From Reclinomonas americana ATCC 50394 (Eukaryota): a stretch of 57,192 nt of DNA. The notes under the pieces are model-generated. The model worked only from the letters and a program-made list of their open reading frames with translations. It had not been told where the DNA came from and ran no database searches. Both the position numbers and the translations under genes were made by a program. Below, one piece after another: positions 3,501-57,075 of the stretch. Location of the stretch: positions 22,300 to 79,491 of the forward strand of contig PS015262.1 of assembly GCA_048213135.1 (NCBI GenBank), given 5' to 3'. How positions within the stretch are numbered: the first letter of the stretch is position 1; each line of letters starts with the position of its first letter.

Positions 3501-4139
3501 AGATCGAGACGACAGAGAAGGCACTCATTCGTGTCGTGAAGGCCATCAAGTCGTTTGCCAAGGCATGTGAATCGAGCCCGATTTGCTGGCCGTGGAAACG
3601 CTCGCTGAATCCCTGTCGCGCAGTTCGTGCCGGTGCCCGTCGTGCGTGATCTCATTCAGAGCGATGCCGTGGCCGAGCTTGGCGTGGAGGCGCGCGTCCT
3701 CACTGTCCTTTTCTGGTGAGCTGCGATGGCCTTCTTGGTGGAGTCTTTTACGCGATCGAGTACTGACGCTGTAATGCGCAGCGATATTTCCAACTTCTCA
3801 TTTTTGGCCGACCGCTTGCCGGCCAACGATCTGCTGGCTGTGATCTCTGACTTTCTGCAAACCATGTCGTCTGTGATTGCTGCCAACGAGGGCACCGTCG
3901 ACAAATACATTGGAGATGGCATTAGTTGCGATGGCTGCGCCAGCCACGATGACAGTGTGCAGAGATGTCTGACATTTTTCTCACGACTATTACAGTGGCG
4001 TTCTGGAACGCACCCAACCCTGTGCTTCAGCACGCCTGTCGAGCGTGCACGTCAGCACTTCAGGCGCGTCGAGTGCTGGAGTCGTTGAATGCGGTGAGTG
4101 GCAGTGAACTGAGAGAAGCTTTCTTCTCTCTCTTTCGCT

Positions 4140-4173
<34 letters not shown>

Positions 4174-4604
4174 NNNNNNNNNNNNNNNNNNNNNNNNNNN
4201 NNNNNNNNNNNNNNNNNNNNNNNNNNNNNNNNNNNNNNNNNNNNNNNNNNNNNNNNNNNNNNNNNNNNNNNNNNNNNNNNNNNNNNNNNNNNNNNNNNNN
4301 NNNNNNNNNNNNNNNNNNNNNNNNNNNNNNNNNNNNNNNNNNNNNNNNNNNNNNNNNNNNNNNNNNNNNNNNNNNNNNNNNNNNNNNNNNNNNNNNNNNN
4401 NNNNNNNNNNNNNNNNNNNNNNNNNNNNNNNNNNNNNNNNNNNNNNNNNNNNNNNNNNNNNNNNNNNNNNNNNNNNNNNNNNNNNNNNNNNNNNNNNNNN
4501 NNNNNNNNNNNNNNNNNNNNNNNNNNNNNNNNNNNNNNNNNNNNNNNNNNNNNNNNNNNNNNNNNNNNNNNNNNNNNNNNNNNNNNNNNNNNNNNNNNNN
4601 NNNN

Positions 4605-4651
<47 letters not shown>

Positions 4652-5313
4652 TCTCTCTCTCTCTCTCTCTGAGCTGCAGGAGTCTGCATTCCGAATCTCA
4701 CTTCTTTTCTTCAGTTGGGTGACACGGTCACCCTGGCCAGTCGTTGCCACGCACTTAACAAGAAGCTGCTGACATCAGTGGTGGTCACGGAGGACGTTGT
4801 CGCACAAGCCAACTCTCTCTTCTTGTTCCGCGCCCTGCAGCCGATTCCCACCAAGGGCGGGCGAGGATACACCACTGTTGTTGCGTTTTCTGCCCTCTCT
4901 CACGACTTCTCCCCTTTTCAATCCTCACACGCCGACAACAAAACAGTACGAACTCGTGACGTCCCTATCGGAGGCGACAGCCGAGGAGCGTGCACGAGTG
5001 GCGCTGGCAAACAGCGCTGTCGACGCGTACAATGCCCGCCGCTACGCCAACGCAATCGCACACGCTCGTGTGTTCTTGGCCACCGAGCCGGGCGATGTGG
5101 CGATGCGACTGTTGCGTCCTCATTGCATGCGCGTGATTCTTGCCCCCTCTTTCTGTTCCCCCACCGTCTCGCGCGCGCGCACACACACACAGTTTGTTGG
5201 ACGAGTGCGAAACATTGCAGGCCAGTGAGGAGGCCGAATCATCGCCAGCCGAGGCCAAGGTCAGAGCGTACTCGGCGGCCGCAGACGGCACCATCGTCAG
5301 CGTAGGCAGATGA
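564..5313 (+). CDS. Receptor-type class III nucleotide (probably adenylate) cyclase: TM, Cache-like sensor, TM, HAMP-like linker, cyclase domain, helical tail; about 16 introns; gap inside
   Basis: Spliced translation gives SFAK|FVPVPVVRDLI, VLTVLFCDISNFS, GTVDKYIGDGIMAFWNAP, GDTVTLASR and PTKGGRGYTTV|YEL, with two hydrophobic segments (about 1081-1140 and 3235-3310). The K in VDKYIGD is the ATP-specifying residue typical of adenylate cyclases. TGA at 5311-5313. Confidence 0.85.
2268..2497 (-). pseudogene. Frameshifted tandem EGF-like (tenascin-type) repeat relic, antisense inside cyclase intron 2142-2678
   Basis: Three different minus frames read SGHGQCKTGGTCKCIGDYTNPSC, QDGKCLCTVDDTDASCNSRPNITCSINGTCN and HGAACQCTSD, with EGF-like cysteine spacing broken by frameshifts. 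Confidence 0.6.
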
Positions 5314-5394
5314 AAAACAAGATTAGCCACAAATTGTACATTGTTTGGATTAGCCAAGAGGAAACAAGAGCGGCGGCAGCGGCGGCGGCGGCGA

Positions 5395-8300
5395 TCACGG
5401 AGCAAATTCAATCTCCTCCGTCGCGTCGAAACCGTGTATTGGTGGCAGTCGCTCTCGTGACTGCGGCCGGTGCAGGCCCTCGAGCTCCTCAATGCGTGCT
5501 CGCAGCCGCTGAATCTCGGCCTTTTGCAACTCGATCTCGCGAAGCGGATCGAAATCCTGTGCGCCATGTGAGAACTGAGTGTGGAAGAGGGGCTTGCCGG
5601 GCAAACATCCCCTGACGCAACGTCAAAGCCTCCACCCGCTCCCCCGCCAGCGTGCTGTGTGCCGTCCTGTTGCGTGACAAAGAAGCTCTGTCGGCGGTGC
5701 GAGCTACCGGCACCGGGTCGTTGGCCAGCGCCCATGCTGCGCAGTGCCTTGTTTTCTCTTCTCAACTCGTTGATTTCGTGAATCAGAGTGATGTTTTCTT
5801 GGAGAATCTGTACGACACAAAGTCAGACCACGCATAGAAGAGTTGCGGTGCCAGCGACATCACGAAACTCTTCTGTTCTCCTTGCGCTGCGTCTCCGTGT
5901 CCTTGGCCAGCTTCTTCTTCAGCGACTCCACTTGCTTCTCCAGATACTCGCGCTGCCGCGAGTACTCGTCACGAAGCGGCTCGTCACCACCAGCCGTCTG
6001 TACAGTGATGAAAGGCGCACGTGAGTCCACATGACGGCAACTACCCAGCGCCCGAGCAGGCAAAGAAGACAGAAAATGAAGAAGAGAGAATGAGGGAGAG
6101 AGTGCTTCTTCAAGAAATAAACAAATCGTCTCCAATATCAGATATCTCAAGCTCTCTTCTGCAGATCATCGCCTTCTCATTCTCGAGTCTTCCCCCCATT
6201 GTTGCTCATCTCACTTCGCCCTCACTTACAATAAACCCTCCGTGCGTTTCCTATCCTCTCCACTTTCCTTCACTCTCTCCTCATCCCCTTGCTCTCTCCC
6301 TCTCATCTCAGTCGCATTCTTTGCTGTCCATCTCACCCATTTCTCTCATTTCTCCACTCTCCTTTCATCAACCTTTTCCTCTCTTCCCATCTCCCTTCCC
6401 CTTTCCACCCACCTGCTGCGGCTGCTCCACATACAACTCGTGCAGCTCACGCACGCGCTCCTTCAGCGCCCGCGGATCCTGAATGACCGTCAACAGGTCG
6501 TGCAAATCGCGCTCGAAGCGCTGTTGCAACAGCGCATAGTCGCGCAGTTGGAATTGGAGGCGCTTGTTCTCCTTGCGCGCACCGTGCACCTTCATCTTGT
6601 AGTCGTCGTTCTTGGTCTTCAACAAGCTGTTCTCCATCACGTAGCGCTCCAATTCCTGCTCAAACATGTGAGCACCATATCACACAACCCACCTATCCTC
6701 TTCCCACACTCAACACACCTCATTCATGCCGACGATTTCGCGCTCCATCTTTTCGATTTCGGCATTCTTCGGCCCGACTTGGCTCTCCAGCTCACGGAAA
6801 CGGTGCTCCGACACGTACTTGAACTTCTCCAGCTCCTGTTTCTCCTTGCGCAACTCGGTGGCCTTGCGTTCCTTCTCCATCAAGTTCTTGTCCTTCTCCG
6901 CCGCGTCCTTCTTCAACCGATTAATCTCCTTTTCGTAGTCGCGTTGCTTGTTGATCATCTCGGCCACCAGGTCCTCCTTGCGCTTCAGCTGCTCCTGCAG
7001 CTTCTTCACGTCCTGCTCGGCCTTGGTACGTCGGTTGATTTCCAGTGATTTGGCGCCCTTTTAGAGAAAGAGTGAGACCACGGCATGACTGGCAAGGGAA
7101 AACAACAGACACGAAGCGTACCTTTTCTTGCGCAAAGTCCTCCTTGGCCTTGCGGCTCTCGAGCAGGGCCTTCTCCTTGGAGCGCTGCAGTTGTGTGTCG
7201 TGGTCGTCCTGCATCTGCTTCATGCTCTCCTCGTGGCACTTCTTCTGGAACTCGAGCATCTCCTTGTGGTTGTGAATGGCCAGATCGCACTCCCGCAACC
7301 GCTCATGGAAAGCCTCGCGTTGCTGCGTCAACTCCTCCTGATACTTGGCCTCGATCGCCGCCATGTCCTCCGCGTGTTGCCGTTGCAGTTCCTCGATGCG
7401 CTCATTCAGCTCCTTGATGCGCAGATTCATCGCTTCGCTCTTCTCCTTGAACTCGTTCTTCTTGCGCGTCATCTCCTCTTCGTGCAGGCGCTCCGCGTTG
7501 TGAATCTCGCTCCGCAGACGCACAATCTCGGCCTCTTTTCTGTGCTCCTCCTCCGAGGCTTGTTGTTGTAATTGGTCGAGCTGGAGATGGCAAGATGGAT
7601 GAGTCCAAGTGTGCACACAAAAACATCTCCCTTCTCTCTCTCACACACACACCTTTTGTAACAACTTGCCCTTGTCCATCTCGTGCGCCAAGTGCAGCTC
7701 ACGCTCGCGAGTCTTCATGTTCACGTCGTACTGCTGCATGTTGGTCTCAATCGTCTGCTCCAGGCCCGCAATAATGGTGCGCAGATGCTCCAACTCCGAG
7801 TGCGAAATGAGCACCTCGTCCGAGAAGGCCACCTCCAGTTTCTTGGACTGCTCGGAAATGTCGCGCACGTCAAACACCATCACACAGCCGTCGCGACCGA
7901 CAGTCACCAGCGTCGACTCGTCGTACGACATGGTGATGGAGAGGATGCTGTTCTGGTGAGCCACATAGTCCTCAAACACATCTGTGCGATTGGGACGTAA
8001 AGGTTTCAGAAGGGAATAAAGTTGAGAAGAGGACGCAAACACTCTATTCTTTTTGCACTCACCTCGCTCCAGCGGGAACGGATAAAACCGAATCAGACCA
8101 TCCTCCTTGCCGGCGTAAATGGCACGATTGTTTTGCGCGTATTGCAGCTTGTACAACGCTACTCGACTGTTGATGACCTCGATCTCCTGGCCCTCGCTGC
8201 CGTTGAACTCTTGAAAGTAGTGTCGCCGCACGGGCTTGTCAGCGCCAACGGCGAAAATGGTGTCGCCGGGGCCGTACACGACTGACGAGTATCGACAGTT

Positions 8301-10626
8301 GGGTGTGGAGTGTTCGTGCAGCAGACCAAAGTTGCCGACTTGCCACTCGAAGAGCGAGCCGTCCTCCGCGCAGCTGCGCAAGCGAAAAGGAAGACCATGA
8401 GCACCAAGAGACGCTCTTTTCTCCATCAATCTCTGCCCTCACCTCACGAGCGATGCATCGTCGGCCTTCCATGCCACCGACTGAATCAATGACATGTGAC
8501 GCAGTGACTTGAGCAACTCGCACGTGTAGGTGGCGTACACTTGCACGTTGTGTTGATTGACGGCCGCGAAGAAGCTGCCACCGTGCGAGAAGCGGCACTG
8601 CGTAAAGACGGGGGGGGGGGGGGAGTGTGAGCAAGTGCTCTTTCGTACATCCCTCTTGCCGTTAAACACACACCTCTCGACATTCGCGCACTGAAAACTC
8701 CTTCACAATTCTCAAATCGTCATCGAGAATGTCCATGAGCTTCAACTTGGTTTTGAAGCCGACCAGCATGTGATGACCTGCGCCAAGAGGAAAAAAAAGT
8801 GAGTCGCGCATTCACCCAGCAAACCGGCGCACGAGCGACACTCACCCGAGGGGTGAATTGCGACAGCAGTGGCCTCCTCGGGGAAGAAGCGCACAATATT
8901 CAACGAGTGGTCGTGGTAGTTCCACACACGCACACTCTTGTCGACGCCGCACGTGACAATGAGTGGCTTCCGAATGCATGTGTCGACAGCTGTGATGCCG
9001 TCAGAGTGCCAGCTTTCGGCCAGAAGCGACACGTCCTGTGTATAAATTGGCATCACGTGATGAGCATGCACCCAGTGCAGTGGACGAACTGCTGCTGTGC
9101 TTGCACGCAACATTCTCAATGTCCTGGTTGAGGGACACCAAAAAGATTTGGTGATTGGCCGTCGACACAGCAATCATGGTCTGCTCCGGATTGACAGAGA
9201 GGCCCACCACGGCCGGCCGTGGATCCGAAAACAGCTGGTTGCCGTTCTTGTCCTTGTCCAGCAGCTTGACGGTGCGTACGCGAGAGTAAAAGTCGCCGGC
9301 ATCGGAGCGATCGTAAATCGCCACCTTGCCCGTGTCGGTGCCCACGATAAAGCCCTGCACGAAGCAGAGTGGTGAGTCGCCGCGCGCGTCTGCGAGGTTG
9401 GAGTGGCGCCAAACCTTCTGGAACGGGTAAATGACGCGCACAATCTCGCCCATCGCATCCTGCGTGTGAATCGTGCCCTTGAATTCGCCATTCTCAATCA
9501 GCAGCAACTCGCCCTGATCGGTGGCCGCCACAAACCGGTGGTCGTCGGTGCCACGCAGCCACGCCTGTGCCACAATGTTCTTGGGCTCGCGCAGAGCTGA
9601 GGCGGCCAGCACGCGGAAGCCATTGGCCTCGGCGCGGAGGAATCTCAGTGCACCGTTGCCGACGACCGCAATCAGCGACGAGTCAGCCGGGCAGAAAGAG
9701 CACTGGGTCATGACGGGGAGAGGAGTGCCGGCTGCAAGGGAAGAGAGAGAGAGGTGAGGAGGTGGATGGGAAAGAGATTTTGAGAGCAAGACTCGATGCC
9801 CATTTGCCCGCCTGTCGACTCACATTGGTAGGGCTTGGAGAGATCCTCCTGCGCCACACACTCGGTGGAGGCCAGCACCTTCTTTGCGTCCAATCCCCAC
9901 ACAGTCAGGCCGTAATTCGGTGCGCCTCCCAGCGTCAACAGCTTGCCATCGTGGCTAAAATCGACCGACACGTACTCCTTGGCCTTGTCGTTCGAGTTTG
10001 ACGAGGTTACAGTTTTCTTTCGTCGGCCTGAGACGCACGTGAGACAGAGCAGCAAAGGGCTGGAGAGTCTCGGAGTCGTCACAACTCACCAGTAGCCACC
10101 TCGTAAATGTGCACCATGGCCGCCTCGCTGCTGCGCTCCGCCACAGCAAGATACTTGCGCTCCTTGCGCTCGTTCTGCGATCCCATCAACGACATGGCAC
10201 TGATGCCTTCGCTTTTTGTCGCATGCTGTGCCGAGGGGACTGCGTGGAGAGGAGAGGAGANNNNNNNNNNNNNNNNNNNNCACACACTCCTCCTCCTCCT
10301 CCTCTCTCTCTCTCTCTCTCTCACTCTCTCTCTCCTCTATCCCTTTTCTCCTCCAACCCACTCACCAATGAACCGCTGCACTCTTGTTTGCAAATCCATA
10401 TTGACAATGCACCGGCCGGCCGGGTACAAGCACGTGGTCTCATTCAACAAGTGCACACTGCCTTGCACATCCGACTGCATACCAAACACATGACTGAAGA
10501 AACAGACAATGAGTGAGACACACAGGGAGAGAGAGAGAGACACCATGAGTGTGAGAGTGTGTGAGTGATTCAGAGACGCAACCGCAAGGTCAGCGCCGGC
10601 TTGACATCCTCCTCAGGCGCCGCCAT
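5395..10626 (-). CDS. CFAP57: Cilia- and flagella-associated protein 57 (WDR65): WD40 repeats plus C-terminal coiled coil; about 17 introns
   Basis: RHVFG...YPAG, YLAVAE, HSDGITAVDTCIRKPLIVTCGVDKSVRVWNY, AVAIHPSG, CRFSHGG, FSDEVLI, KQELEKFKYV, EYSRQREYLEKQVESLKKKLAKD and ILQENITLIHEINELRRE all match recalled CFAP57 family motifs. Confidence 0.92.
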
Positions 10627-10773
10627 TCTCTCCTTGTTCCTTTCGCGACACAACGCAAAAAGACAAATCAACGGTCGCGTGACTCACCGTCGCATCTGTC
10701 CGTGTCTGTCCATCGCGAGCAGATATCCATTGTTTTTTTTTTCCCCCTTGCTCGATAGCGCAAGTAGTTCATC

Positions 10774-11235: not shown

Positions 11236-11275
<40 letters not shown>

Positions 11276-12613
11276 AGAGAGAGATGTTCGCTGTTCGTCA
11301 CTATGGTTTGCTCACGACGTGGTTTGTGTCACGCAGCGCAAGACATTGAGACGTCGGTCAGGAAGATGCAGGAGATGTGGGTGAGTGCATCTACGTAGTG
11401 TATGCGATTGTCGCGGTGCTCTGTTCGCTCACGGATCGCGCTTGCAGGAGGAGGAGGTCAACAACGGTTTGCATGTCGATATATCGTGCAGGGTTTTCCA
11501 TTGTGCCGGTGAACTCACGCTCCGAGTGCAGACTTGCGACAGACGCTGCAGGACATTGAGGATGATCAGAGCAAGCGCAAGCAGATGCGCTCGGAGTCTG
11601 TCGGCCTGCTCTCTGGTCAGGTGATCACCGCCAAGGACTTGGTCGACAACTCGATCGTTGGTCAGGCCGTGTCGCGCCTCGTCAACCGCGAGACCCTGAT
11701 CAAGAAGCTCACCGTCAAGTGGAACACCTCCATGTGCCGCCGAGTTGCGTTGGCGTGCAAGTGAGAAGCGCCGTTGGCCTATACTGCTCACACGAGACGC
11801 GCATTTTGCAGAAAGTGCGTTTCAACAAGACCGGAGGGAAACACGCCAATCGCTACTCTTGCATCGGCTTTGCGTGCATGCAGAAGGTGAGACGCAGAAG
11901 TGCCACGAAGACGTATTGCTGTGTCAATGGTTTCTGACAGTGTATGTAAAATCCTCCCAGTGCCGCTCGGACAGCGTCTACAAGGTGAGCATCATTCTCC
12001 CCTCAATGTCAGTGCTTTTTGTTGTGCATTGCGGTGGGCTAACGACGTTGTGTGCAGTACTCGTGTGGACCGGTGTGCTTGAAGGACATTAGCGGGTGCA
12101 AGAACGGCATCAAGGCCGGCGTGAAGTCGACGATGAAGTGGGTGGCCAAGACTGGTACGAGTCGCACATCTCTCTAGATCAGTCTGTTTGTCTTGTCTCC
12201 TCATATGACGCGCACAGCCATCAAGGCCGCCATCTCCGGCCAGCTGAGCCTGGTATCGGATGCCAAGGACGTCGGCAAGACGATTCTGGAGCACGCCATC
12301 AAGGTGCGTTGTTTATTTTGACTGCATGACGTGTGAAGCCACTGACTGATCTCCATGTGCTGTAGTTTGCACTGCTTAACACGTGCCCAGAGGGCTCTGG
12401 CACCTACACCGAGGACCAGTACCTGGCCGACCACAAGGCCTGCTACGATCAGGCGATTGACGAGAACCCGAAGCAGAAGAGCACCAAGGGTGAGGCGTCT
12501 CTTTCTTCGCTGCGATTCGTGTGCGTGAGGCTCACGTTCGTTTCGCAGGCTCGTACGTCAAGCTGATGGACGACCCGAACATTTCGCTCCAGGAGTGCCT
12601 GGAGAAGTTGTAA
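10774..12613 (+). CDS. Predicted secreted protein with acidic N-terminal region and Cys-rich central module; function unknown; about 9 introns
   Basis: Signal-like MAQHSSIVVLFALLLAAVL; consistent spliced frame MCRR|KVRFNKTGGKHANRYSCIGFACMQK|CRSDSVYK|YSCGPVCLKDISGCK; TAA at 12611-12613. Confidence 0.65.
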
Positions 12614-12818: not shown

Positions 12819-14318
12819 TCACGTTCTGAGTATATTGTCGAGATCCTGCTGCCCCAACTGCTCAGTCATCAGGCCGGCAACCATCGGCAGCACTGCGTAG
12901 GGGACGCTGACCACTGCATACGAGAGGAACGTGCGGACCGCAAACTCTACCATTTGCTCCCGCTGCATCCTCTCGTCCTGCTCTGGGGTGATGGCGACAC
13001 CGCTCGAGGTCCACGCCGCGCGTCGGTCAATCAGGCGCTCTACGCCGAGACCGTAGGTGCCGAGTGCGGCAGCCGCCGCCGCCCAGAAGCCGTTGCGTAT
13101 CGCCTGTCGCTGAACAGGCGGCAAATCACCAGTGACGACCTCGCCGAGAGCGCGCAGATACCGCCGCGCTCGATACTTGGTGCGACAAAAGGCCCACAGA
13201 AACGCCACACACGCCGATGCGCAGACGGCCACCACGGCCGAGTTGGCATTGCGCCGCCGGGCCTCGTCGACCGATGCAGGCGACATTTGAATCACGGGCG
13301 GTGTCAGCTGTCTTCGCACCTCCAACAGCGACACACCGCCACCACCACCACCACCATCATCGCCGCCCGCCTGTAGCGATCGACGTGCCATGTCGGTGGC
13401 CAGAGATTTGCTCTGCGACAATTCGAGGGCGGCCAACAGCGGCGCCGCAGCCTCAGGTCGCTCCCTGTGAACTGCATCACCCGCGGTGTCAGCTGGCGAA
13501 CCAACTCAGTGCATCTGCCATCACACGATCGCAACTCCACGGCGCCATGTGGCACACGACCCACGCAATGTTCATCTGCGACTCGGGCGCTCGCTCCTCC
13601 ATCACGAGACGCGCCACCACCTCCACGTAGTCGACCATGAGTCTCGCCTCGCTGTCCGACTGCGCCAGCACCGCCAACAACTCAGTGCTCTCGTGGCCAC
13701 CACGCCCGCTCGCCTGCAGACCCGCCAGCACCCGTCGCGTCATTGCCTCGCGCAGTGCAGCACCCATCGGCGTGGAGAACTCGTACTGCGCCACATTGCG
13801 CAGCGTCCGCATCGCCAACGAGTAGCCTGTCGACGACACGGATGGATGATCGACGAGTGCGGCCACGGAGGCAATCATGTGCCCACCGTCGTCGTTGTCG
13901 GCCAATGACGAGGCAAATACGCGCAGAAAGATCCGATTGGCGAGGAGATCGTTGGGATTGACGCGACTGATGCGTTCCAGCTGCTCGAGAGCGCGGCATT
14001 GTCGCGGCTGGTCGTCGGAGTCAGCGAGGCCCGTGCGGAGTGATGTGAGAAGCGATGATTGGTCTGCACGTACGCACATTGTGTGTGTGTGTGTGAGAGA
14101 GAGAGGATGAGTGCAGCAGGGTGGGAGACGCACCTTTGGTGGAGTACAGGTGTGCAGCGGAGAGGCCGACACCGCCGAGCCACGCAGCTCGCCAGGCCCA
14201 CAGAGTGCGCGGTCCTCGCACGGCCTCTGTGTGTGTGTGTGTGAGAGTGAATGAGCGAAGGATGCATGCTGTGCTTGTGTGCACACTCACCCAAGGCCAG
14301 GGCGTTCAGGCGCTCCAT
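12819..14318 (-). CDS. Hypothetical protein: helical (possibly ARM-like) N-terminal half, 2-3 C-terminal hydrophobic segments; 3 introns
   Basis: ATG at 14318; GT-AG introns (including 13472-13535) join ORFs 13489-14286 and 12819-13436 in frame. No family recognised. Confidence 0.6.
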
Positions 14319-14529: not shown

Positions 14530-17011
14530 TCACACCGGCAGGCACTCTCCATTCGGGCACCTGCCACCAAACATCTGCGGCACAATGTCTGGCTCGCACG
14601 ACTGCACCAGCGCGTTAGGGAAGACGGCCGTCTCAATGGCACCCGCAGAGTCCACGGTGATCTCGGCAACACGCCACCAACGGTAGTTGTTGGGGTTGCT
14701 GGTAGGCACTGCCAACGTGGTGGTGAAGCCGCGCTCGTCAAAGTACAGAACCGAGGCTGCCGAGGTGTGCAAACGCCGCTCGGTGTTGTAAGTGATGGGC
14801 TGGAAGACGCAGTAGACATATCTGCCGCTGAGCCCAAGCTGAGCGATCTCGGTGACCTCGGGGCCGAAGCCAGCGGTTTGGTCCGTGCTCAGAACGGCAT
14901 ACGGCTCCTCGTTGAAGGCGCCAAAGTTGTAAGGCATCGGCTGCCCCGTCTCCCTCGCTCGCACAGGTGCCGACGGCTCCGCCTCCAGCTTCTCGCCGGT
15001 CACGCTGAAGTTTCCGTCAAACTTGTAAACTGGCGACGCCACGATGTAGTTGTAGGGCGTGGACAAGTAGGCGTCCAAGTCGAGTGGTTGCTCGCCCCAC
15101 GTAAGGACAAAGCTGGCGGGGAAGCTGCCTGGAAGCCCGTCCAGCACCACGTCGCCCAAGTCCACAACCGAGCCAACCGGGGGCGTAGTAAGCGTCTGCT
15201 CGGCGTTCTTGATGCCACGATAGTCGACCTGCAATTTGACCGTCTCACCGCCGCCCTTGACAATCAGCGAGAAGCGACCATCGGAGTCAGCCGTGGCCCA
15301 GTAGCTCCCGATGTACGAGACGCCAGTTTGGATCACACTAGCGCCGGCGATGGGGGAGCCAGTGGGGGACACAACGCGGCCAGTGAAGCGAGCGACCGTC
15401 CACACCTGGTCGTAGTTCCAGAAGGTGAAATGGGTCACCCTGCGGGAGACACCACAGAAGGGTCATTAGAAACTTTGCGCTCGCGAAACAGCTTACAACG
15501 GGACGAGTAATCGTGACTCAACTGGCCGACCAGTGCACCATTGCTGTCCTTGGTGGCCACTCCGTCCTCGATCCAGATGCCGAGGTCCTCGTCAAAGTAC
15601 CAAAGCGGCACAGTGCTGGGCGCCGAGGCGGCCAAGGATGACGACAATGAGATTGTGGCGCCGACATTTGGATCCAGCTTCGGCACCACTCCGGACGGCA
15701 GAGGCGACAGCGTGAGCACGAAGAAGCCGAAGCTCTCGATGGGAGCGTCAGCGCCGGCCTGGGTGCGGCCAACGAAGAGACCGGGGAAGGCCAGGATGTC
15801 GGTGGGCGAGCTGTAGTCGAAGGCAGCCAGGTTGACCGTGACAGGGTCGGTAATGGGCGCCCCGGTCGCCTCGTCAATGAAAGCGTTCGGTGGGAAGGTG
15901 ATGTTGTGGGTGGAAGCGGTCACGTCTCCACCTGTCGACGGGTCGACAGATTGGATGACCTGCGCCGCGGTCATGCGCAAGACGGCCTGGTTGATCTCGC
16001 CCGCAAGCACAGCCACCACTTGGAAGCCATCGATGTAGCTCGACGGATTCGGCGCTGAGCCGAAGCTGGCGCCGATGACAACTTGGGGGCCTGCCTCCAC
16101 CGCGGCCAGGAGGAAGGATCCATCGAGGCCAGTGATGGTGCTGAGTGACTGGCTCTTTACAGAAACAGTGACGCCGATCAGTGGAAAATCGGACACGCTG
16201 TCGAGAACATAGCCGCGCAAGACTCCTCGGGCAACAGAGCTGAAGCCGCAATCAGTGAGTTCACAGCAAAAAAACCTTCATCGATCCCACGTACCATTCA
16301 CGATCCGAGGTGGCGGTGGGCGGTGCCAACTCCTGTTGGCCCGCCCCACACACCGTCCACACCTGGCACGCTCGGCTGGTGCCAGTCGAAACGTTGCAGG
16401 CAGTCTTGAGGAACTGGCCATCGGGGCACGCGCTGCAGTCCACCGTCACGGCCGGCTCAGTGAACGCCACGCAGGCGCTGGCCGAACCGCAAATGTTGTT
16501 GAAAGCGTAATTGTTGGGAAACTGGGCGCCGTTGCACTGGCCCTGTTGCCCTCCAGCGAAGCACTGGCAAAATGAGCCTCGGTTCAGGTTGACCGAGAGG
16601 TCCGAGCGGTTGCCGCAGAAGCACTTGCCATTGGTGTGGCAGAAGCCAAACCTGCAGAGGGTCGGGAAAAACTTTGAGACATGGACTCGCGCAACACACA
16701 CGCGACACATGTGTCTGAGTTGACGCAACGGGAAGCTGCACTGAGAGTCCACCGTGCAGGCACCACCACCAATCGGCAGCGCAGGCGCAATGGGCGACGC
16801 CGGTAGATCAGTGGCAGCGATGCACGCCGTGGCCGACAAACAAGTGCCAGCGGGAGCGCCGGCATACGAGTAATTGTCGGGGAAAGGGAAGCGATTGCAC
16901 TCGCCACGCAGGCCACCAGCAAAGCACTGGCAACGATCTCCGCGGTTGAGGTTCAAGCTGCCGTTGCTGCGGTTGCCACAGACGCAAGCCGAGGTCGCAC
17001 TGCGCGCGTCG

Positions 17012-17062
<51 letters not shown>

Positions 17063-22235: not shown

Positions 22236-22266
<31 letters not shown>

Positions 22267-49161: not shown

Positions 49162-49202
<41 letters not shown>

Positions 49203-49204
49203 AG

Positions 49205-52200
49205 TACGCCGACTCCTTCAGCCCTGTGGACACTGCCGCCACTGGAGCAACGCCGCCTCCTCCTGTGGTTCCTCCGCTCTTGCTCTCCTCCTCGCAGCCA
49301 CCCTCGTCCTCTCTCGCTGCTGGTTCTGCGGCGCCTGCGGCGGTGGGCGCGGCAGTGGCGGCGGGTGTGGCGGTGCAGCCACGACGGTCGCCGCGTGGGG
49401 TGCCGTATGGTGAGTCAGGGAGGGAGAGAAGGAGGGAGGGAGGGAGGGAAAGGGAGAGGGAGAGAGGGGAGGGAGAAAGATTGTTGCTGTGTACTGTGAG
49501 ATGAAGACTTGAGGTCGGCAGAGAGACGCAAATTGCGATTGTTGCTGCTGAGAGATACCTGTTGTCACGGACGTGAGGGAGGCTCCAGAGAAACGCCGTG
49601 TGTATGGTGAATGAGCTGCCTCGTTCGCGTGGTGAGCAGAGGCACAGATTGCGATTGTTGCTGTTCACTGTGAGATAGCTGTTGTCAAGGACTTGAGGGA
49701 GCCTCAGAAGGATCACTGCCTTTGTTTGCGTGGTGGGCAGAGAGGCGCAGATTGCGGTTGTTGCTGTGCATTGTGGGTTAGATGTTGTCGAGGACTTGAG
49801 AGAGAGCCTCAGAAGAAGCACCTTGCAGGGGTGAAATATCTGCCTCGTTCGCAAAGTCCTTGACAACAGCTATCTCACAGTGAAGTGCTGCATGTTGCGA
49901 CTGTTGCTGTGCACTGTGGGTTACCTGTTGTCAAGGACTTGAGAAAGGCTCAAGAGGAACACCTTGAGCAAAGTGAGATAGAGCTGCCTGAGACTGCTGC
50001 TGTGCATTGTGAAATAGCTGTTGTCGAGGACTTGAGAGAGAGCCTCAGTAGAATCACCATGCGCAGTTAGAAATTTTTTGCCTCGTGTGGATACTTCCGA
50101 AGAGTCTACATTGCGTGTTGATGCCATGCACTCGTTGCCAAGTCCCACTGTGACTAGCATGCCCCTATCGAAAGTGAGGCAGTGACAGAAGCTGCTGCCA
50201 CTTTGCATGCGTGGGCGGTACCCGCTCTCTCCCCTGATGTGTTATTGTTGCTCTGTCTCTCTATTCGTCTGTGCCCATTTGTTTTCCGAGCTTGTCCTTA
50301 TTTTTCCTCTCCCTTGTACCTTCGCCTTTTCTTTCGCTCTCCTTCCCCCCTCCCCCTCCCTCNNNNNNNNNNNNNNNNNNNNGTACCGTCCTCTCCTCCT
50401 CTGTAGTTGTTTAGTTGTCGTCTCTCTCTCTTCTTCTTCGTTCGTCGTCGTCGTTCGTTTCGTTTCGTTCGTCTCTTCTTCTTCTTCTCTCTCGTCTTCT
50501 TCTTCTCTCCTCCCTCCCCTCCCCTCCCCTCCCCCTCCCCCCCCCCCCTCTCCCTCCCACAGCCAGCCGCACCCTGGTCAACCGCGTCCCCGCCCCGCCC
50601 GTCATTTACCAAAACTCAGCCACGCAAGCCATCGTCTCGCCTCGCATCGCCGCCTCAGGCATTCTCGAGGCGAGCGCCGACGAGATGTCGTCGTCCGCCT
50701 CGTCGTCACTGGACCGGCGGCAGAGCTCCATGTCGTCCATGTCGAGCAGCATGACGGACTTTGACAAGTCGTTTTCGCAGTTGACTGGTGGTGCTGGTGG
50801 CAGTGCTGGTGAGTTGAATCTCAAGAAAGAGAGCGAGAGGGGGAAGAGGGAAAGGGAGGGCGAAGGGAGAGAGTGATGGGAATGAGAGGGAGAAAGAGAA
50901 AGAGAGAGAGAGAGAGTGAGCACTATTCTACCCCTCCTGTCACCTGTCTCTCCTCTCTATCCACAATCAGAGAAAGAGAGAGAGAGAGGTGTAAAAGCGT
51001 GCACGTTCCTCTTATTCATCTCTTCCCTTCCCTCATCATCTCTCACTCTCTCGCTCTCTTCTTCTTCTTTCTTCTCTCTTTCACCCTTTCCCCTTTCCCC
51101 CTTCCTCACCAACTCACCTCTTCTTCGTGGCCTTTGCCTTCCACCCCAGGTGGTACGCTGGAGGAGCGACGGCGCAAGGTGGCCCTCACCGTGGAGAGCC
51201 TCAAATCGCAAACTCATACTGCGCTCCACGCGGCATCAACGCGCTCTCTCTCCACCGTCACCGAGGGCTCGGCCGGCATTCAGCGCATTCTCGACGGCTT
51301 GCGTGCACTGCGCATGTCCGCGCCTCGTTGCGTTTCGCTCACCTACTTGGCATTTTCCTGCCTCTCTTCTCAACCATGTGCACTCCAGCTGTCGACACGA
51401 CGGTGGAGGAGTGGCACGCCACATTCGATGATGTGTTCCGAACATCGGAGGGTGTCAAAATCCTTGTGCACTTTTTCAGCATCCGTTCCTCCTCCTCGCT
51501 GCGACAAGCCATTCTTGAGTTTCTCGAGATTCTCGGTGCGAGGGCTGTCCGCTACCCAGACAGAGATATATGCTTTGATGAGTGACTTTTTCTTTCCTTG
51601 CAGCGCACAGTGACGCCCTGCAACCCAAGGACATCCGTGCTCTGGTTCCGCTGCTGATTGCAGACGAAGAGGTTCTTGAGTTGATGTGTTAGATAAGAGA
51701 CGAATATGACATGCTCACTCTTCCAACTCAACTGCAGATCAGCAAACCGGCTGCTGCGCTGATTGGATGCGCCGGTGTGTTCTTTATTTTCTGCAGCACG
51801 ACATCCACACGTTCGGGGGAATTGACATTCATGTGTTTACAGCACACAACAGGAAGCCGGTGCAAGATGCTGTGCGCAGTGAGAACGGCATTGCAGCGCT
51901 GTTGATGATATTGAAGGATCACGACAAGGATGTGCTGCATCGGCAGGCGGCGGCCGGTGCGCTTGCCAACTTGAGTTGCGCCACAACTCCCTCCCGTCCC
52001 CCCGTCGTATTCGATATGCTGCTGACCAGCCTGGCAATATATAGTCTACGAGAACTACAAGAACGCTCGTCTGGTCCTGCACTGGCTTCCGGTGGTGGTG
52101 CGCTCGCTGCTGCCGATGCCGGGTCGAGATATTGCGCCGCTGCTCTTCCGTATGATTGGCAACATTGGTGTGTGTGTACATGCACGGGTTGGCCACTCAT

Positions 52201-53275
52201 GAATGCAAGCTCGGCTAACCACGATGCAGCCGCGGATGCGCGTCTGATCAGCAAGCTGTTGAAGGAGACCGAGTTGATGATTGCTCTGTGCACGGCCTAT
52301 GACGGCTCCGATGCCCCCGATGTTGCGTCGCGTGTCTTTTTATGGTCAAGGGAGTGCATCGTGCATGACTCATCGCTGTGCTGCAGACGGCTGTGTCGGA
52401 TCCACTGTTTGTCAAGCGGCGCGCCGAGGCTGCGTGGGCGCTCTCCAACATTGGTTTGTCTGCATGCCTCCACAGTGGTGAATGTAGTTGAAGCGAACTT
52501 ACGCAGTGTCACGTGCAGTGTCTTCCAGTTGGATGAGCAAGTCGGCCGGCAAGCAGCGTGTGCGAGATGGACGCATGAGCATTCGCGCACGTCTCACCAG
52601 CGAGTCCGCGAGTCGCCACGTGGTGCTGTTTGACCAGTTGAATCTGAGTGAGAGACCACAAATCACCGAGGTCGACTTGTGTGCGGCATCTGCGGCTCTG
52701 TTTGCGTCGCTCGGTGCGTTCTGCGAAGGAAGAAAAAAGGGTAGCTTGGTCTGCAGTTGCTGATTACAATTCTCCTCCCCGGCAGCCTACGGCAACGACG
52801 ATGATCGTGCACACATGGCGCACGATTTGCCCAAGACCGTCGAGCATCTCTGCCACGCGCTCGGTGTGCAGGCATCGGAGGGTTAGTGGCGGTGGGTTTG
52901 GGCGAGATGCCAGAGCAAGGTGGTCTGACTCGCGATTCTGCAGTTCTCTCACGAAGCGCCGCGCGTGCTCTACTCAACCTGTGTTGCGTCATTGGTTCGA
53001 GTCTGCTCATGTTTCTCACGGCTGTTCTCATTCGTTGCGGTGATGCAGTCACGTTTGTGCCGTTTGGACAGGTGCGGCAGAGGGGATTGAAGGGGTTCTG
53101 CGATTGTTTTTGTTTCTCATCCACAGGTGTGCAGCCGCTACCTGCCGAGCAGCTCGGCCGAGCACGAGCGGCACTGGAAACAGCCTCAAAGAGTGAGGGC
53201 GTGTCACCCGACACACAAGAATACGCGAGGCTGGCGTTACAGGTGCCAGCATTCGCCGACGTGCAGGCAGTGTGA
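49205..53275 (+). CDS. Armadillo-repeat protein with low-complexity N-terminus; 5' end missing in a gap
   Basis: GVKILV, AAALIGCAAHNRKPVQDAVRSENGIAALLMIL, AAAGALANL, EAAWALSNI, SAARALLNL; TGA at 53273-53275. Confidence 0.75.
49479..50060. repeat. Degenerate intronic minisatellite (about 6 units of roughly 100-120 bp) containing one inverted segment
   Basis: Recurrent core ttgcgattgttgctgtgcactgtgagatagctgttgtcaaggacttgag near 49479, 49533, 49649, 49752, 49895 and 49992; perfect reverse complement at 49854-49884. Confidence 0.85.
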
Positions 53276-53392
53276 TAGGAAGGGCTGTGAGTGGCTCCAA
53301 AGTAAATGCGAAGCGATCCATCAACCCTTGATTAGGCAGCGACAAACGTCGAACATCGCCGCATGTCCTTCCCACCTGTCCCAATCAACCGC

Positions 53393-54087
53393 ATGCTTGC
53401 AAGTGGAGAGAAGAAACGCATCGGGCACGCCAAGTGCGAGGTCTGCACGGAGAACCTCTCCAAGTACAAGTGCCCACACTGCACACTGGTATAGTTGCGT
53501 GACATAAAAACACAATGCATGCACGATGAATGCTGCATGCTGACTGCAAGCAACGCATGCATTCAGCTGTTCTCTGGTGTGCTTCAAGCAGCACAAAGGT
53601 AAGAGAAAGAGCTATACCCTCTCTACCTCTCCCTCTTCTCCCTTCTCATGTCCTTGCTCAGCGGTCGACGAAGGCTCGTCAGCTCCCTGTCGCGGACTGT
53701 CATCTTCAGCAGATCAACAGTCGGCGATGGGTGCTCGAGGCACAGACAAGGCCGAGAAGGAGGAGACAGATGAGGATCGCCTCGTGTTGAGCGATGCGCA
53801 GCTGGCTTGCTTGAGTGAGTGTGTCAAGGCTTCCTTCGTGTTGTCACACACTGACACTCTCTAACGAAGGCAACCCGTCTCTCATTCGCCGCCTGGCCGA
53901 TCCGGAACTGCAACGCGTGTTGCATCTCATTGACAGCGCCGTGGAGGTGCTTCCCAACGGACGACGTGTGGATCAGCGAGAGCACGTGCTGCGCGAGTGG
54001 TTGGCGGTGCCTGAATTCCGCGAGGTGGCCGACGAGATGCTGCAGGCTGTTGGTGTGCGGCCAATCGACAAGCAGGAGATTGAGTGA
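53393..54087 (+). CDS. ZNHIT3: Zinc finger HIT domain protein 3 (Hit1 / TRIP3-like), box C/D snoRNP assembly factor; 3 introns
   Basis: CEVC...KYKCPHCTLVYCSLVCFKQHK (zf-HIT) and a C-terminal LADPELQRVLHLID...PEFREVADEMLQAV. Confidence 0.88.
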
Positions 54088-54310
54088 GCCCTTGGTACTC
54101 GGCAGCATGCAAGCGACATCACCACCAAGACGCTCGAGACAGTCGAGCATGCCTGGTCACGGTTGTGGATGAGCAACAGCTTGCGTTACATGCGTGCGCA
54201 ATGTCGCACGCGCGAGAGAGAGAGAGATAGACGAGTGTAATCCCGCCACAGCAAGTCTATGACTAACGGCAGGTTTAATTCCACTTCTGTCACCATCGGC
54301 ACGGGCCACC

Positions 54311-55596
54311 TCATGAGAGTGGGTGCCTCAATTCAAATGCTCCTGTGCCACTCTTGATCGGAATGCCCATGACCAAGTTGGCAGCCGGCGTGCGCAACGT
54401 ATCCACGTCTCCGCAACTGCACGTAGAAGGAGATCGTTTCAGTAACCTTTGTTCTCACTCGCGCACTCGCTCTCTCTCTCTCTCATTCACATGCACTCTC
54501 TCTCTCTCTCACGCACTCACTCACTCACTCTCTCTCTCTCTCTCACACTCACACACACTCCGTCATTCACTCCCTCACTCCTTTCTCTTTCTACTCGTCT
54601 CTCCTCCATTTCCTTCCCCCTCTCTCCTCCATTTCCTTCCCCCTCTCTCCTCCATTCTCTTTCTCCCCCTCGCCACCACGCAACAGTGCTGCATCCGTGA
54701 GGAACTTGACGGTAGTTTCGTACGACATTTTCAGGAACGGCGACACGTGCGCCGTCATGCCAATGCGATTGAAGCCCTTCCAGCCACCCTCGAATGTCTG
54801 CGTTCACCTCAAGTGAGCAAAGAGACGAAATCAAGTCTCTCTGCCATCATGCATCGCAAACGCACCGCATAATCGGCAATGAGCTGCAAGTGTCTCCAAT
54901 CGACAGTGATGCCGTAGGCGTCGAACACACCCTTCAGCTCACGCGTGATCAGAGTTCTGCATTACACGGACAGTGAGTATCAATCTGAGAGGTCGTAAGT
55001 GTGTGCGAGAGTACATACCTGGCCGCCTCCACGCCATAGGTGTTGAGGATGGCGCGCACATCATTGCAGTACAGCGAGTTCACGTCGAGAATGTCGGAGC
55101 GCTGCCAGATGGCCGGGAAATTGGCGCCGGTCACGTTGAGCACAAACTGTGAAGACGGGATCAGTCAGAGAGTGCATTCCAGGATCCCGCAATAACAATA
55201 CACTCCCGATCTTTTCCCAATGCAGAGTGCACTTGCTTTCCCTCTTGTCGCTCGTCTCCATCTTCGACTTTGCTCTCTCTCCCTCTCTTTCTCTCTCCTT
55301 CTCTCCGATTCCCCCCTTCCTCTCTCCCCTGTCGCTCATCTCAATCATCGACTTCCCTCTCTCTCTCTCCCTTTCCCCTTTTCTCTCACCTGTCCCCCTT
55401 CTCTCACTCTCTGCTTCCCCCTTCCTTTTCCCTTCCTTTTCCCTTCTCCCTTCCCCCTTCTCACCTGCATGGACGTGCCCTCCTGCTTCTCCGTCAGCGT
55501 GCAGTTGGAGATGCCGCGCGTGCTTGTCAGCAGCACCTTGGCCGCCACCGACTCGGCCACCGAGAGAACCAACACCTTTTTCTCCATGGCAGAGTG
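54311..55596 (-). CDS. RPA1: RNA polymerase I largest subunit, last exons
   Basis: TGANFPAIW, DVNSLYCNDVRAILNTYGVEAAR, VFDAYGITVDWRHLQLIADY, TFEGGWKGFNRIG, SPFLKMSYETT and TPAANLVMG...GTGAFEL; no Pol II heptad CTD. Confidence 0.92.
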
Positions 55597-55623
55597 CTGA
55601 CCAACACAAGAGCCCGACATGAG

Positions 55624-55661
<38 letters not shown>

Positions 55662-56128
55662 NNNNNNNNNNNNNNNNNNNNNNNNNNNNNNNNNNNNNNN
55701 NNNNNNNNNNNNNNNNNNNNNNNNNNNNNNNNNNNNNNNNNNNNNNNNNNNNNNNNNNNNNNNNNNNNNNNNNNNNNNNNNNNNNNNNNNNNNNNNNNNN
55801 NNNNNNNNNNNNNNNNNNNNNNNNNNNNNNNNNNNNNNNNNNNNNNNNNNNNNNNNNNNNNNNNNNNNNNNNNNNNNNNNNNNNNNNNNNNNNNNNNNNN
55901 NNNNNNNNNNNNNNNNNNNNNNNNNNNNNNNNNNNNNNNNNNNNNNNNNNNNNNNNNNNNNNNNNNNNNNNNNNNNNNNNNNNNNNNNNNNNNNNNNNNN
56001 NNNNNNNNNNNNNNNNNNNNNNNNNNNNNNNNNNNNNNNNNNNNNNNNNNNNNNNNNNNNNNNNNNNNNNNNNNNNNNNNNNNNNNNNNNNNNNNNNNNN
56101 NNNNNNNNNNNNNNNNNNNNNNNNNNNN

Positions 56129-57075
56129 CCGCAGCTGGTGATATGGATGATTCAAGTCTATGTGTATAAGATGGTGGCCGCCATGAGGAAGGAACTGAAG
56201 AAGAAGCAGACAAAGGAGTTGCGTGCACTTTGTGCCTTGAAAAAGTCAACAGCAGTGAGAATGACACTCGCTGTTTGCATGCAGATCCGGCGGTGATTTC
56301 GTGGTAGTCGACGCCAAGGGAGAGAGCGATGTGATGGGTGATGGCGCTGGCGACGCCACCATGGAGGTGGACGACGAGGAGAAACCGGCGGACGCGAATG
56401 CTTCGAAGAAGAAGAAGAAGAAGGCCGAAGACGAACACAAGAAGGGCATGCATGACGATGATGATGCGACCACCACGCGTTCTCGAATGCGCAAGAAGGA
56501 GAGTGCGTCGTATGATGAACCCGACGAGGCCATGGAGGCGACGGATCCTGCTGGCGACAAGACCACTGGCCTTGCGGATATCGACGCGGAGGAGTCGGCC
56601 GACGAGGAGACAGCGGAAGCAGAAGTGGCGACTCCCAAGTCATCGAAGAAGAAGAAGAAGACAGCGGCGGCACCGGCGGCTTCGCCGGCAGGCGCATCTT
56701 CCTCCACGCCAGTCTCTCGCAAGACCAGTGTGGCCAAGATGATGAAGGCGCTGGATGAGGAGTCGCCGGACAAGAAGTGGGACGTGTGCATGGACAAGTT
56801 CAATGAGCTCGTCTCGTACAACTTTGACTGGGAGCATCAGCGGTGGTTCGAGTTCACCTGGCAGGTTTGTCTTTGTCAAGAATGATGCGTGTGTGCGAGA
56901 GAGAGAGAAAGAGGTGCTCATGTCGGGTTCTTGTGTTGGTCAGCACTCTGCCATGGAGAAAAAGGTGTTGGTTCTCTCGGTGGCCGAGTCGGTGGCGGCC
57001 AAGGTGCTGCTGACAAGCACGCGCGGCATCTCCAACTGCACTTTGACGGAGAAGCAGGAGGGCACGTCCATGCAG
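56129..57075 (+). CDS. RPA1: RPA1 upstream exons (acidic insertion/expander region) on an oppositely oriented contig, including a second copy of exon 55465-55596
   Basis: Acidic/Lys-rich region with SASYDEPDE, then YNFDWEHQRWFE|HSAMEKKVLVLSVAE...RGISNC, the last exon being identical in protein to the minus-strand exon. Confidence 0.82.

Follow-up and report, generated by a model that had tools for sequence, protein, structure and literature searches.

How are introns recognized when their 5' splice sites have neither the usual G at the last exon base (position -1) nor the usual G at the fifth intron base (position +5)? The question is raised by a stretch of DNA of 57,192 nucleotides (nt) from Reclinomonas americana ATCC 50394 (GenBank assembly GCA_048213135.1, contig PS015262.1, positions 22,300 to 79,491 of the forward strand), called the window here and numbered from its first letter. 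In this stretch an original prediction made from the letters alone had seen an abundant second class of 5' splice sites (donors) that read GTTGCG(T). Few steps of gene expression are as conserved as the recognition of the donor by the 5' end of the U1 small nuclear RNA (snRNA) and the subsequent hand-over to U6, and sites without both the -1 G and the +5 G are, to our knowledge, normally rare and weak. In the window, such sites appear as a fixed heptamer in a large share of constitutive introns, beside ordinary donors in the same transcripts. We confirm here, at the level of DNA and homology, that GTTGCG(T) is the 5' end of real, ordinary-looking GT-AG introns of the U2 type, and we weigh how such a donor may be read.

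A donor class recovered without donor information

All 31 GTTGCG hexamers listed as donors in the original prediction are present where it had placed them, with T at +7 in 27 of the 31 and with A 13, T 10, C 6 and G 2 as the last exon base, just as it had counted; we also agree that the introns at 23135 and 52983 are in-frame (introns are named by the position of their first base). We searched the window with a gene finder that was blind to the donor beyond GT, every GT being scored alike. The finder was a joint-strand dynamic programme with a self-trained three-periodic coding model, a learned model of branch and acceptor and an intron length model, and was run for four rounds. This blind run yielded 123 introns (median length 69 nt); the branch that it learned was CT[C>G]AC, and the 3' end was CAG. 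The commonest donor hexamer among the 123 introns was GTTGCG with 23 cases, followed by GTGTGT (10), GTGAGT (8) and GTGCGT (5). Of the 31 claimed donors the run found 21, and it added two that had not been listed, at 35765 (-) and 44126 (-).

Of these calls, 101 passed a filter that required a length of 43-115 nt and a 3' score of 4 bits or more: 22 with GTTGCG, 50 with a +5 G, and 29 others, many of which are probably spurious. Because such spurious calls are still held in the blind run, the resulting share of GTTGCG introns, 19-22%, is approximate. Overall, the class accounts for about one fifth to one third of the introns of the window. In decoy runs, nine other dinucleotides took the place of GT; they reached total scores of 1960-2257, below the 2401 obtained with GT, and the finder chose none of their hexamers more often than 6 times. 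Since the finder picks substitutes near real sites, these runs show the specificity of the hexamer and not the number of spurious introns.

The same hexamer stood out in a test that took no account of coding. A 3' signal of at least 10 bits at 45-100 nt follows 6.5% of the 5989 GT sites in the window; for GTTGCG, a downstream 3' signal was found at 17 of 71 sites (p = 2e-6), which made it the top hexamer. On the two strands together there are 37 copies of the heptamer GTTGCGT, where an order-3 Markov model predicts 11.6; any of 80 unrelated metagenome loci has at most three copies, and 52 of the 80 have none. Among the 37 copies, 28 belong to donors that were either claimed or called blind, and another two or three look like donors (20118, 40977 and perhaps 13092), so that about 30 of the 37 are accounted for.

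The ten claimed donors missed by the blind run were examined with a targeted frame test, and all of them have an AG-ended acceptor with which the frame stays open over a long distance on either side. At four of them the blind run had settled on a neighboring GT that shares the acceptor or the frame, namely 4877 for 4880, 13555 for 13535, 38156 for 38174 and 43619 for 43624; a further substitute, at 20127, stands beside the probable extra intron at 20118 (Table 1). Gene finders trained on one donor matrix will misplace GTTGCG junctions in the same manner. GTTGCG(T) introns are present in 12 of the 17 gene models, interspersed with ordinary introns in the same genes. Taken together, the DNA counts, the blind finder and the homologue junctions described below agree that the claimed class of donors is real.

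Junctions in homologous proteins

Homologous proteins fix two of the junctions to the residue. Against RPA1 of S. pombe (7aoc_A), the exon upstream of the intron at 54684 runs to residue 1649, the split codon is residue 1650, and the downstream exon starts from 1651; against human RPA1 (7ob9_A), the three positions are 1685, 1686 and 1687, so that the junction is exact against both proteins. At 27713, the tblastn coordinates are contiguous in 3 homologues, and when the spliced protein was aligned by MAFFT with eight of the fifteen homologues, none of the eight showed a gap at the junction; 3 of them have a 3-residue insertion just upstream. At 28265, which lies inside a variable loop, the same kind of alignment gave length parity with most homologues. 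Removal of the introns thus restores the reading frame and the collinearity with homologues exactly at 54684 and 27713 and with parity at 28265; the rest are frame-consistent, apart from 26298, whose acceptor beside a run of N is uncertain.

Other genes give support from one or both sides. In the Kelch gene, each of four exons bounded by GTTGCGT introns matches one Kelch repeat unit. The flanking exons of the intron at 9111 match human CFAP57 (8j07_i4) in order, at residues 294-367 and 387-442; the human and trypanosome proteins have some 5 residues more in the loop that links the two stretches, so that this junction is not fixed to the residue. The original prediction had also held that conserved motifs fix the cut at 3925 and at 53494. 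At 3925, the upstream exon indeed matches class III cyclases up to IGDG, and at 53494 the upstream exon holds the first two thirds of a HIT zinc finger (Pfam zf-HIT 3-19 of 30, E 1.4e-5) and reading through the intron meets a TAG. The downstream exons, 3998-4171 and 53568-53687, had no Pfam match by themselves, nor had the single short exons 54687-54803, 54314-54415 and 10340-10492, and the PDB gave none for 3998-4171. The junctions at 3925 and 53494 consequently stand on the frame together with one-sided matches.

The Kelch gene (22060-23460, +) has one blade per exon, and of the introns between blades at least the four with GTTGCGT are in phase 1. Its six blade-separating introns comprise 2 with ordinary donors and 4 with GTTGCGT.

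Introns of the ordinary type beyond the donor

Apart from the donor, the GTTGCG introns resemble the ordinary ones of the window. All 34 listed introns with assigned ends (Table 1) begin with GT and finish with AG. The median length is 70.5 nt for GTTGCG introns and 67 nt for introns with a +5 G, and the median branch distance is 20 nt and 19.5 nt for the GTTGCG and ordinary introns, respectively. A CT.A[CT] branch motif (CTCAC-type) was found in 26 of 32 GTTGCG introns and in 43 of 56 ordinary introns, and a CAG end in 28 of 32 and in 48 of 56. The intron phases (6/9/7 for GTTGCG and 20/19/17 for ordinary introns) did not differ (p = 0.75).

Two other kinds of intron were tried and rejected. 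For U12-type introns, the donor RTATCCTT had no match in the window, and a branch like TTCCTT[G/A]AC was found in none of 32 GTTGCG introns. For an introner or a mobile intron family, the local alignment of intron bodies gave a mean score of 7.61 for GTTGCG pairs and 7.74 for ordinary pairs (p = 0.99). Inside the GTTGCG introns, a complement to their own donor was found no more often than by chance.

A near-fixed heptamer without the usual exon signal

For the base composition of the donor, we compared 33 GTTGCG donors (the 31 claimed and the two found blind) with 56 ordinary donors. The -1 base is A in 15, C in 6, G in 2 and T in 10 of the GTTGCG donors, and is G in 42 of the 56 ordinary donors (Fisher p = 8e-11). 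The claim that G is excluded before the cut went too far: G precedes GTTG in just 12% of 566 cases window-wide and in 3 of 38 non-donor GTTGCG sites, so that 2 of 33 lies within the window background (binomial p = 0.23), and what is seen is the absence of the usual preference. The -1 base of the GTTGCG class resembles the -2 base of ordinary donors (A 25, C 8, G 13, T 10; p = 0.15). On the intron side, the claimed lack of a +5 G holds. T+7 is present in 28 of 33 GTTGCG donors and T+6 in 28 of 56 ordinary donors, and the pair G+6/T+7 mimics the ordinary G+5/T+6.

The GTTGCG donor is nevertheless no base-for-base shift of the ordinary donor, as had been proposed, because +5 is C in 33 of 33 cases while the ordinary +4 is mixed (T 26, A 16, C 11, G 3), and because GTTGAG (1 of 29) and GTTGTG (0 of 35) followed by a 3' signal were at background in the coding-free test. 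A class made by sliding the donor by one base should include many GTTGTGT and GTTGAGT sites. Their near absence tells that the class is not the ordinary one moved: against its 23 GTTGCG donors, the blind run called as near-variants only 3 GTTTCG, 1 GTTGTG, 1 GTTGCA and 1 GTTGGG, and no GTTGAG. Thus, the signal is a near-fixed heptamer with no -1 G preference and no +5 G.

Four further donors were called blind that stand close to the class: three read A/GTTTCGT (5868 (-), 18890 (+) and 41107 (+); the slash marks the cut) and one reads A/GTTATGC (26739 (-)). The three GTTTCGT sites keep C+5, G+6 and T+7, and the junction at 26739 (-) is gapless against presequence protease homologues. With T at +3, no -1 G, and G at +6 instead of +5, these four donors may be minor variants of the GTTGCG class.

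How the heptamer could be paired

We paired the heptamer by hand with the U1 sequence ACUUAC, taken from the available text of Roy and Bowser (bioRxiv 10.1101/2022.06.08.495308), and with the U1 bases that flank it. Standard U1 in the normal register forms 2 Watson-Crick pairs and 1 wobble. In the register shifted by one base (+1), it forms 4 Watson-Crick pairs (G+1, U+3, G+6 and U+7) with a wobble at G+4 and mismatches at U+2 and C+5. A U1 with ACGUAC in the +1 register forms five Watson-Crick pairs, one wobble and one mismatch. A G opposite C+5 is the simplest way to make C+5 obligatory, and it takes one U1 change, to ACGUAC. The shifted register would thus be the simplest geometry, provided that the U1 concerned carries a G there. 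The original prediction had put forward a shifted register as well; standard U1 as its reader is not supported, since C+5 would be left unpaired and an A would be expected there.

We tentatively propose that GTTGCGT may be read in the +1 register by the 5' end of a non-standard U1 (the sole U1 or a paralogue) in which a G faces C+5, and we favor this proposal over the others at somewhat less than even odds. In such a helix, intron G+1 would lie opposite the U1 C that normally faces exon -1, U+2 would remain unpaired, and U+3, G+4, G+6 and U+7 would take the places of +2, +3, +5 and +6. The U1 G, replacing the standard U opposite the canonical +4, would let C+5 form a Watson-Crick pair. With U+2 mismatched in the shifted helix, every other position would have to pair, which would leave one fixed heptamer where ordinary donors are degenerate. 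Cleavage would stay at H/GT, presumably set later by U5/U6 and the invariant GU.

Several points weigh against this proposal. G before GTTG is rare throughout the window, and the scarcity of -1 G in the class does not go beyond this; moreover, the -2 G of the GTTGCG class (13 of 33) does not mirror the -3 G of ordinary donors (9 of 55; p = 0.06). If a single G-bearing U1 served both classes, GTGCGT should be favored, and it was found in 5 of the 123 blind calls against 10 for GTGTGT and 8 for GTGAGT. The U6 ACAGA box explains C+5 in neither register, and in the cleavage register it would pair poorly with G+4, C+5 and G+6, a point that the proposal leaves unexplained. Finally, the whole pairing scheme is drawn from the donor statistics of one window, and these are a weak guide to the U1 sequence, since many lineages keep a standard U1 despite atypical +4 bases, as reported in the available text of bioRxiv 10.1101/2022.06.08.495308.

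Other readers of the donor

A dedicated second snRNA, an alternative that the original prediction had also named, might instead, as a U1 paralogue with several changes and possibly a U6-like partner, pair GUUGCGU in the normal register, so that two recognition systems would serve the same U2-dependent machinery. It would be the most natural account of the discreteness of the two classes, with almost no intermediates in the blind run. The heptamer is also as tight as a U12-type donor, its exon side has no preference beyond background, and the ordinary class resembles that of organisms with standard U1. In Physarum, standard and modified U1 variants are said to occur together, according to the available text of Roy and Bowser (bioRxiv 10.1101/2022.06.08.495308). 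On the other hand, full complementarity in register 0 would need five changes at the 5' end of U1 by our hand pairing, against one to three in the +1 register, and the 3' signals of the two classes are indistinguishable, unlike in the U12 system; we consider such an snRNA unlikely. The wider picture, in which the major spliceosome would hold two parallel 5' splice-site systems, with a dedicated U1-type snRNA (and possibly a U6 variant) for a fifth to a third of the introns and ordinary U1 for the rest, has in our judgement a small but real chance.

Standard U1 could also read the donor by itself, in the +1 shifted register or with a bulge at +3, as at rare human sites; this was the main proposal of the original prediction. 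The mimicry of G+5/T+6 by G+6/T+7 fits it, as does the -1 A (15 of 33), which is like the ordinary -2 A (25 of 56), and shifted and bulged registers are reportedly established for human U1. However, a U of standard U1 would face +5, where A is expected and C is invariant, GTTGAG and GTTGTG stay at background, and the shifted helix has only the 4 Watson-Crick pairs and one wobble beside two mismatches, while the bulge model predicts a -1 G preference that the 2 of 33 do not show. We find it quite unlikely that standard U1 is the reader. A protein might define the donor with little help from RNA pairing, for instance a zinc finger of the U1C or LUC7 type or another RNA-binding protein that reads UGCGU. 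In favor of such a reader are the short, fixed motif and its invariant C, for which neither standard U1 nor U6 accounts; in animals and plants, two classes of 5' splice sites are defined by LUC7 paralogues, according to the available text of PMC11842720. But the LUC7 classes differ in the balance of U1 pairing and not by a new fixed motif, and seven fixed positions, G+1 to U+3 included, fit a helix better than a protein site, and a protein reader seems decidedly improbable to us. Finally, the class might be an artefact of mis-called introns, of GC-AG introns cut as GTT/GCGT, or of introner relics. The gene finder, when forced to use GC, did choose GCGTGC as donor 6 times. Yet a cut 3 nt further in would add a residue, which the residue counts at 54684 and 27713 exclude, as the exact junctions there fit a cut before the GT. 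The motif also occurs in all three phases, and the intron bodies are no more alike than ordinary ones and hold no internal complement of the donor. An artefact of this kind is highly improbable.

Comparison with known splice-site systems

Roca and Krainer (2009) reportedly found that rare human donors of the GUUAAGU type are read by U1 in a +1 shifted register, and Roca et al. (2012) are said to have described U1 registers with bulged nucleotides. Like the human GUUAAGU sites, the GTTGCG donors have a U after the GU, the +3 to +6 signal displaced by one base, the cut before the GU, and no need for a -1 G. Unlike those rare sites, in which A faces the U1 uridines, they make up 19-22% or more of the introns and have an invariant C that standard U1 cannot pair. 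The likeness to bulged registers is that GT-T-GCGT is GTGCGT with one extra U; however, bulged registers keep the -1 G:C pair, while the usual -1 G preference is absent here, and the bulged counterparts of GTGAGT and GTGTGT are missing. The available text of PMC11162779 discusses non-canonical U1 and U6 registers for the STAT3 tandem donor.

U1 5' ends that co-evolved with donors are described in the available text of Roy and Bowser (bioRxiv 10.1101/2022.06.08.495308): Entamoeba has a doubly changed U1, ACAAAC, with GUUUGU, and Mastigamoeba balamuthi has ACGUAC with GUGCGC. As in these Archamoebae, an atypical donor with T+3 or C would face a changed U1 base, and ACGUAC would pair with C+5 here in the +1 register. 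In the Archamoebae, however, the atypical donor is near-universal and paired in the normal register, while the window has two discrete classes in the same genes, the atypical donor in 22 and an ordinary +5 G in 50 of the 101 filtered introns.

U12-type introns have expanded to more than 20,000 in Physarum, as given in the available text of Larue, Elias and Roy (bioRxiv 10.1101/2020.10.12.336362). The GTTGCG introns are like them in forming a second class that can become abundant and whose long, tight donor shows no preference for G at -1, and unlike them in having neither RTATCCTT nor a TTCCTTRAC-like branch (0 of 32), the branch and the 3' end being the same as in the ordinary class. The 'left-handed' and 'right-handed' 5' splice-site classes that depend on LUC7, as presented in the available part of PMC11842720, also split donors by the side of U1 pairing, and the GTTGCG class would be wholly intron-sided. 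Those classes are overlapping tendencies around one consensus, unlike the separate fixed heptamer seen here.

Thus, shifted and bulged U1 registers, variant U1 genes, co-evolved U1 5' ends, an abundant second intron class and LUC7 donor classes are already known. A literature search found no GTTGCG or GUUGCG donor and no bimodal donor pattern of this kind, although patterns shown only as logos or in supplements would be missed. Within that scope, we met no description of a separate donor class that consists of one fixed heptamer, has neither -1 G nor +5 G, and serves at least a fifth of the introns of ordinary type in a genome rich in introns. If the donor is read by a changed or second U1, it would offer a natural system for asking how far the U1 and U6 registers can be uncoupled from the cleavage site and how a new donor class spreads, and it would show co-evolution of snRNA and splice site in an intron-rich genome and not only in intron-poor ones such as Entamoeba. 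Two parallel systems, if real, would in effect constitute a third intron class beside the U2-type and the U12-type, defined only at the donor.

Introns and genes of the window

The introns that begin with GTTGCG and the genes recognized in the window are collected in Table 1. In the table, "blind" stands for the finder described above, and the donor is the left end of an intron on the + strand and the right end on the - strand.

Table 1. GTTGCG introns and recognized genes of the window, with the evidence for each.
Feature	Position	Strand	Length (nt)	Evidence and remarks
GTTGCGA intron, phase 1, class III cyclase gene	3925..3995	+	71	blind; upstream exon matches PDB class III cyclases to IGDG
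GTTGCGT intron, phase 0	4880..4946	+	67	targeted frame test; blind run took GTTGTT 3 nt upstream, same acceptor; one-codon ambiguity
GTTGCGT intron	5111..5192	+	82	blind
GTTGCGT intron, CFAP57 gene	5557..5621	-	65	blind
GTTGCGT intron, CFAP57 gene	9036..9111	-	76	blind; flanks match human CFAP57 8j07_i4
GTTGCGT intron, -1 G, 5' part of CFAP57 gene	10494..10582	-	89	targeted frame test
GTTGCGT intron	11744..11811	+	68	blind
GTTGCGA intron	13472..13535	-	64	targeted frame test; blind run took GTGCCA at 13555
GTTGCGT intron	16652..16729	-	78	blind
Probable extra GTTGCGT intron, not in the original prediction	20118..20186	+	69	targeted test; acceptor shared with blind GTGATC donor 9 nt downstream (20127)
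GTTGCGT intron, phase 1, between Kelch blades	22703..22757	+	55	blind; each flanking exon matches one Kelch repeat unit
GTTGCGT intron, phase 1, between Kelch blades	22902..22969	+	68	blind; Kelch repeat match
GTTGCGT intron, in-frame, -1 G, between Kelch blades	23135..23200	+	66	blind; beyond that, repeat periodicity only; 53-nt alternative acceptor
GTTGCGT intron, after last Kelch blade	23387..23460	+	74	blind; Kelch repeat match
GTTGCGT donor, presequence protease gene, acceptor uncertain	26119..26298	-		donor blind; downstream exon, by the N run 25647-26079, has no homologue match
GTTGCGT intron, presequence protease gene	27650..27713	-	64	blind; homologue junction
GTTGCGT intron, presequence protease gene	28191..28265	-	75	blind; length parity with most homologues
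GTTGCGT intron, nucleoside transporter gene	31992..32064	+	73	blind; flanking exons match Pfam Nucleoside_tran in order
GTTGCGT intron, nucleoside transporter gene	32141..32205	+	65	blind; Pfam Nucleoside_tran
GTTGCGT intron	33294..33365	-	72	blind
Extra GTTGCGT intron, not in the original prediction	35692..35765	-	74	blind only
GTTGCGT intron, coiled-coil gene	38105..38174	-	70	targeted frame test, score 31
GTTGCGT intron	39705..39772	-	68	blind
Possible extra GTTGCGT intron, just after N run	40977..41043	+	67	targeted test; gene strand here uncertain
GTTGCGT intron	42124..42194	-	71	targeted frame test
GTTGCGT intron	43561..43624	-	64	targeted frame test; blind run took GTACTC 5 nt downstream
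GTTGCGC intron	43913..43983	-	71	blind
Extra GTTGCGG intron, not in the original prediction	44047..44126	-	80	blind only
GTTGCGT intron	51327..51388	+	62	targeted frame test
GTTGCGC intron, armadillo-repeat gene	51975..52044	+	70	blind
GTTGCGT intron, armadillo-repeat gene	52322..52386	+	65	blind
GTTGCGT intron, in-frame, weakest case	52983..53126	+	144	targeted test, low score
GTTGCGT intron, phase 2, splits HIT zinc finger	53494..53566	+	73	targeted test; upstream exon zf-HIT; read-through TAG
GTTGCGT intron, GA-rich repeats, RNA polymerase I largest subunit	54417..54684	-	268	residue-exact homologue junction
GTTGCGT intron, inverted piece of RNA polymerase I gene	56218..56284	+	67	blind
Receptor-type class III cyclase gene	carries intron 3925	+		PDB matches
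CFAP57 (flagellar protein) gene	introns 5621, 9111, 10582	-		human CFAP57 8j07_i4 match
Kelch and U-box protein gene	22060-23460	+		exon-by-exon Kelch repeat matches
Mitochondrial-type presequence protease gene	introns 26298, 27713, 28265	-		tblastn and MAFFT homologues
Equilibrative nucleoside transporter gene	introns 31992, 32141	+		Pfam Nucleoside_tran
HIT zinc-finger protein gene	intron 53494	+		Pfam zf-HIT
RNA polymerase I largest subunit gene, C-terminal part	introns 54684 (-), 56218 (+)			PDB 7aoc_A, 7ob9_A

The window is nuclear DNA with 57.5% G+C over 51,739 called bases and 19 runs of N. Its genes are dense on both strands and have many short introns, and several of them encode long coiled-coil proteins. 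No close relative was found. For an exon of the presequence protease, the searches gave 15 protein matches and 80 metagenome loci, of which the best are 45-50% identical and none exceeds 50%; the sole named protist matches are heteroloboseans. The whole protein has a flat 30-35% identity to all eight aligned homologues, and a CFAP57 exon had no match in a word-based search. For the CFAP57 exon 9112-9354 (-), the best single-stretch score was with the CMF6 chain of PDB 9e5c (21.7 bits), against 16.1 bits with human CFAP57; together with the heterolobosean matches, this hints only weakly at an affinity. In intron content, the window fits neither Andalucia, which is intron-poor, nor Diplonema, which has 1.6 introns per gene and a median intron below 1 kb with some far longer; Mastigamoeba, an anaerobe with 60.7% GC, 3.4 introns per gene and a mean intron of 137 bp, was likewise compared and may or may not be akin.

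No snRNA or transfer RNA gene was found within the window at Rfam gathering scores. When E values up to 1 were allowed, Rfam gave merely 10 weak look-alikes of microRNAs (miRNAs), small nucleolar RNAs (snoRNAs) and cis-regulatory elements within the window, and no U1; 8 of the 10 lie in one low-complexity hairpin region. In this region (50841-51099), sub-threshold matches to miRNA precursors, snoRNAs and an untranslated-region element are stacked on both strands, and the DNA is purine-rich (GA)n and then pyrimidine-rich (CT)n. It is probably a long low-complexity hairpin and not an RNA gene.

The most over-represented heptamers in the window are (CT)n and (GT)n words. The long runs of N (for example 4174-4604, 25647-26079 and 55662-56128) are mostly edged by (CT)n, (GT)n or simple repeats that code for Leu/Ser, and four runs consist of exactly 20 N.

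Around the run of N at 55662-56128 lies an inverted repeat of 182 nt with 97% complementarity, whose arms (55445-55626 and 56914-57095) both code for one and the same segment of the largest subunit of RNA polymerase I. Of this gene, the part that comes first is on the + strand (56147-57081), and the part that follows is on the - strand from 55587 downward. Since the two parts are on opposite strands, the right-hand piece looks like either a wrongly oriented contig join or a real inverted duplication.

The coiled-coil genes at 36274-38364 (-) and 42140-44704 (-) are very long and consist of near-identical tandem units. One of the two has a unit of about 38 residues repeated more than 10 times, and the other has units of about 49 residues with an intron between each. 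Frames on the opposite strand are also open in both regions, so that the strand calls there are less safe.

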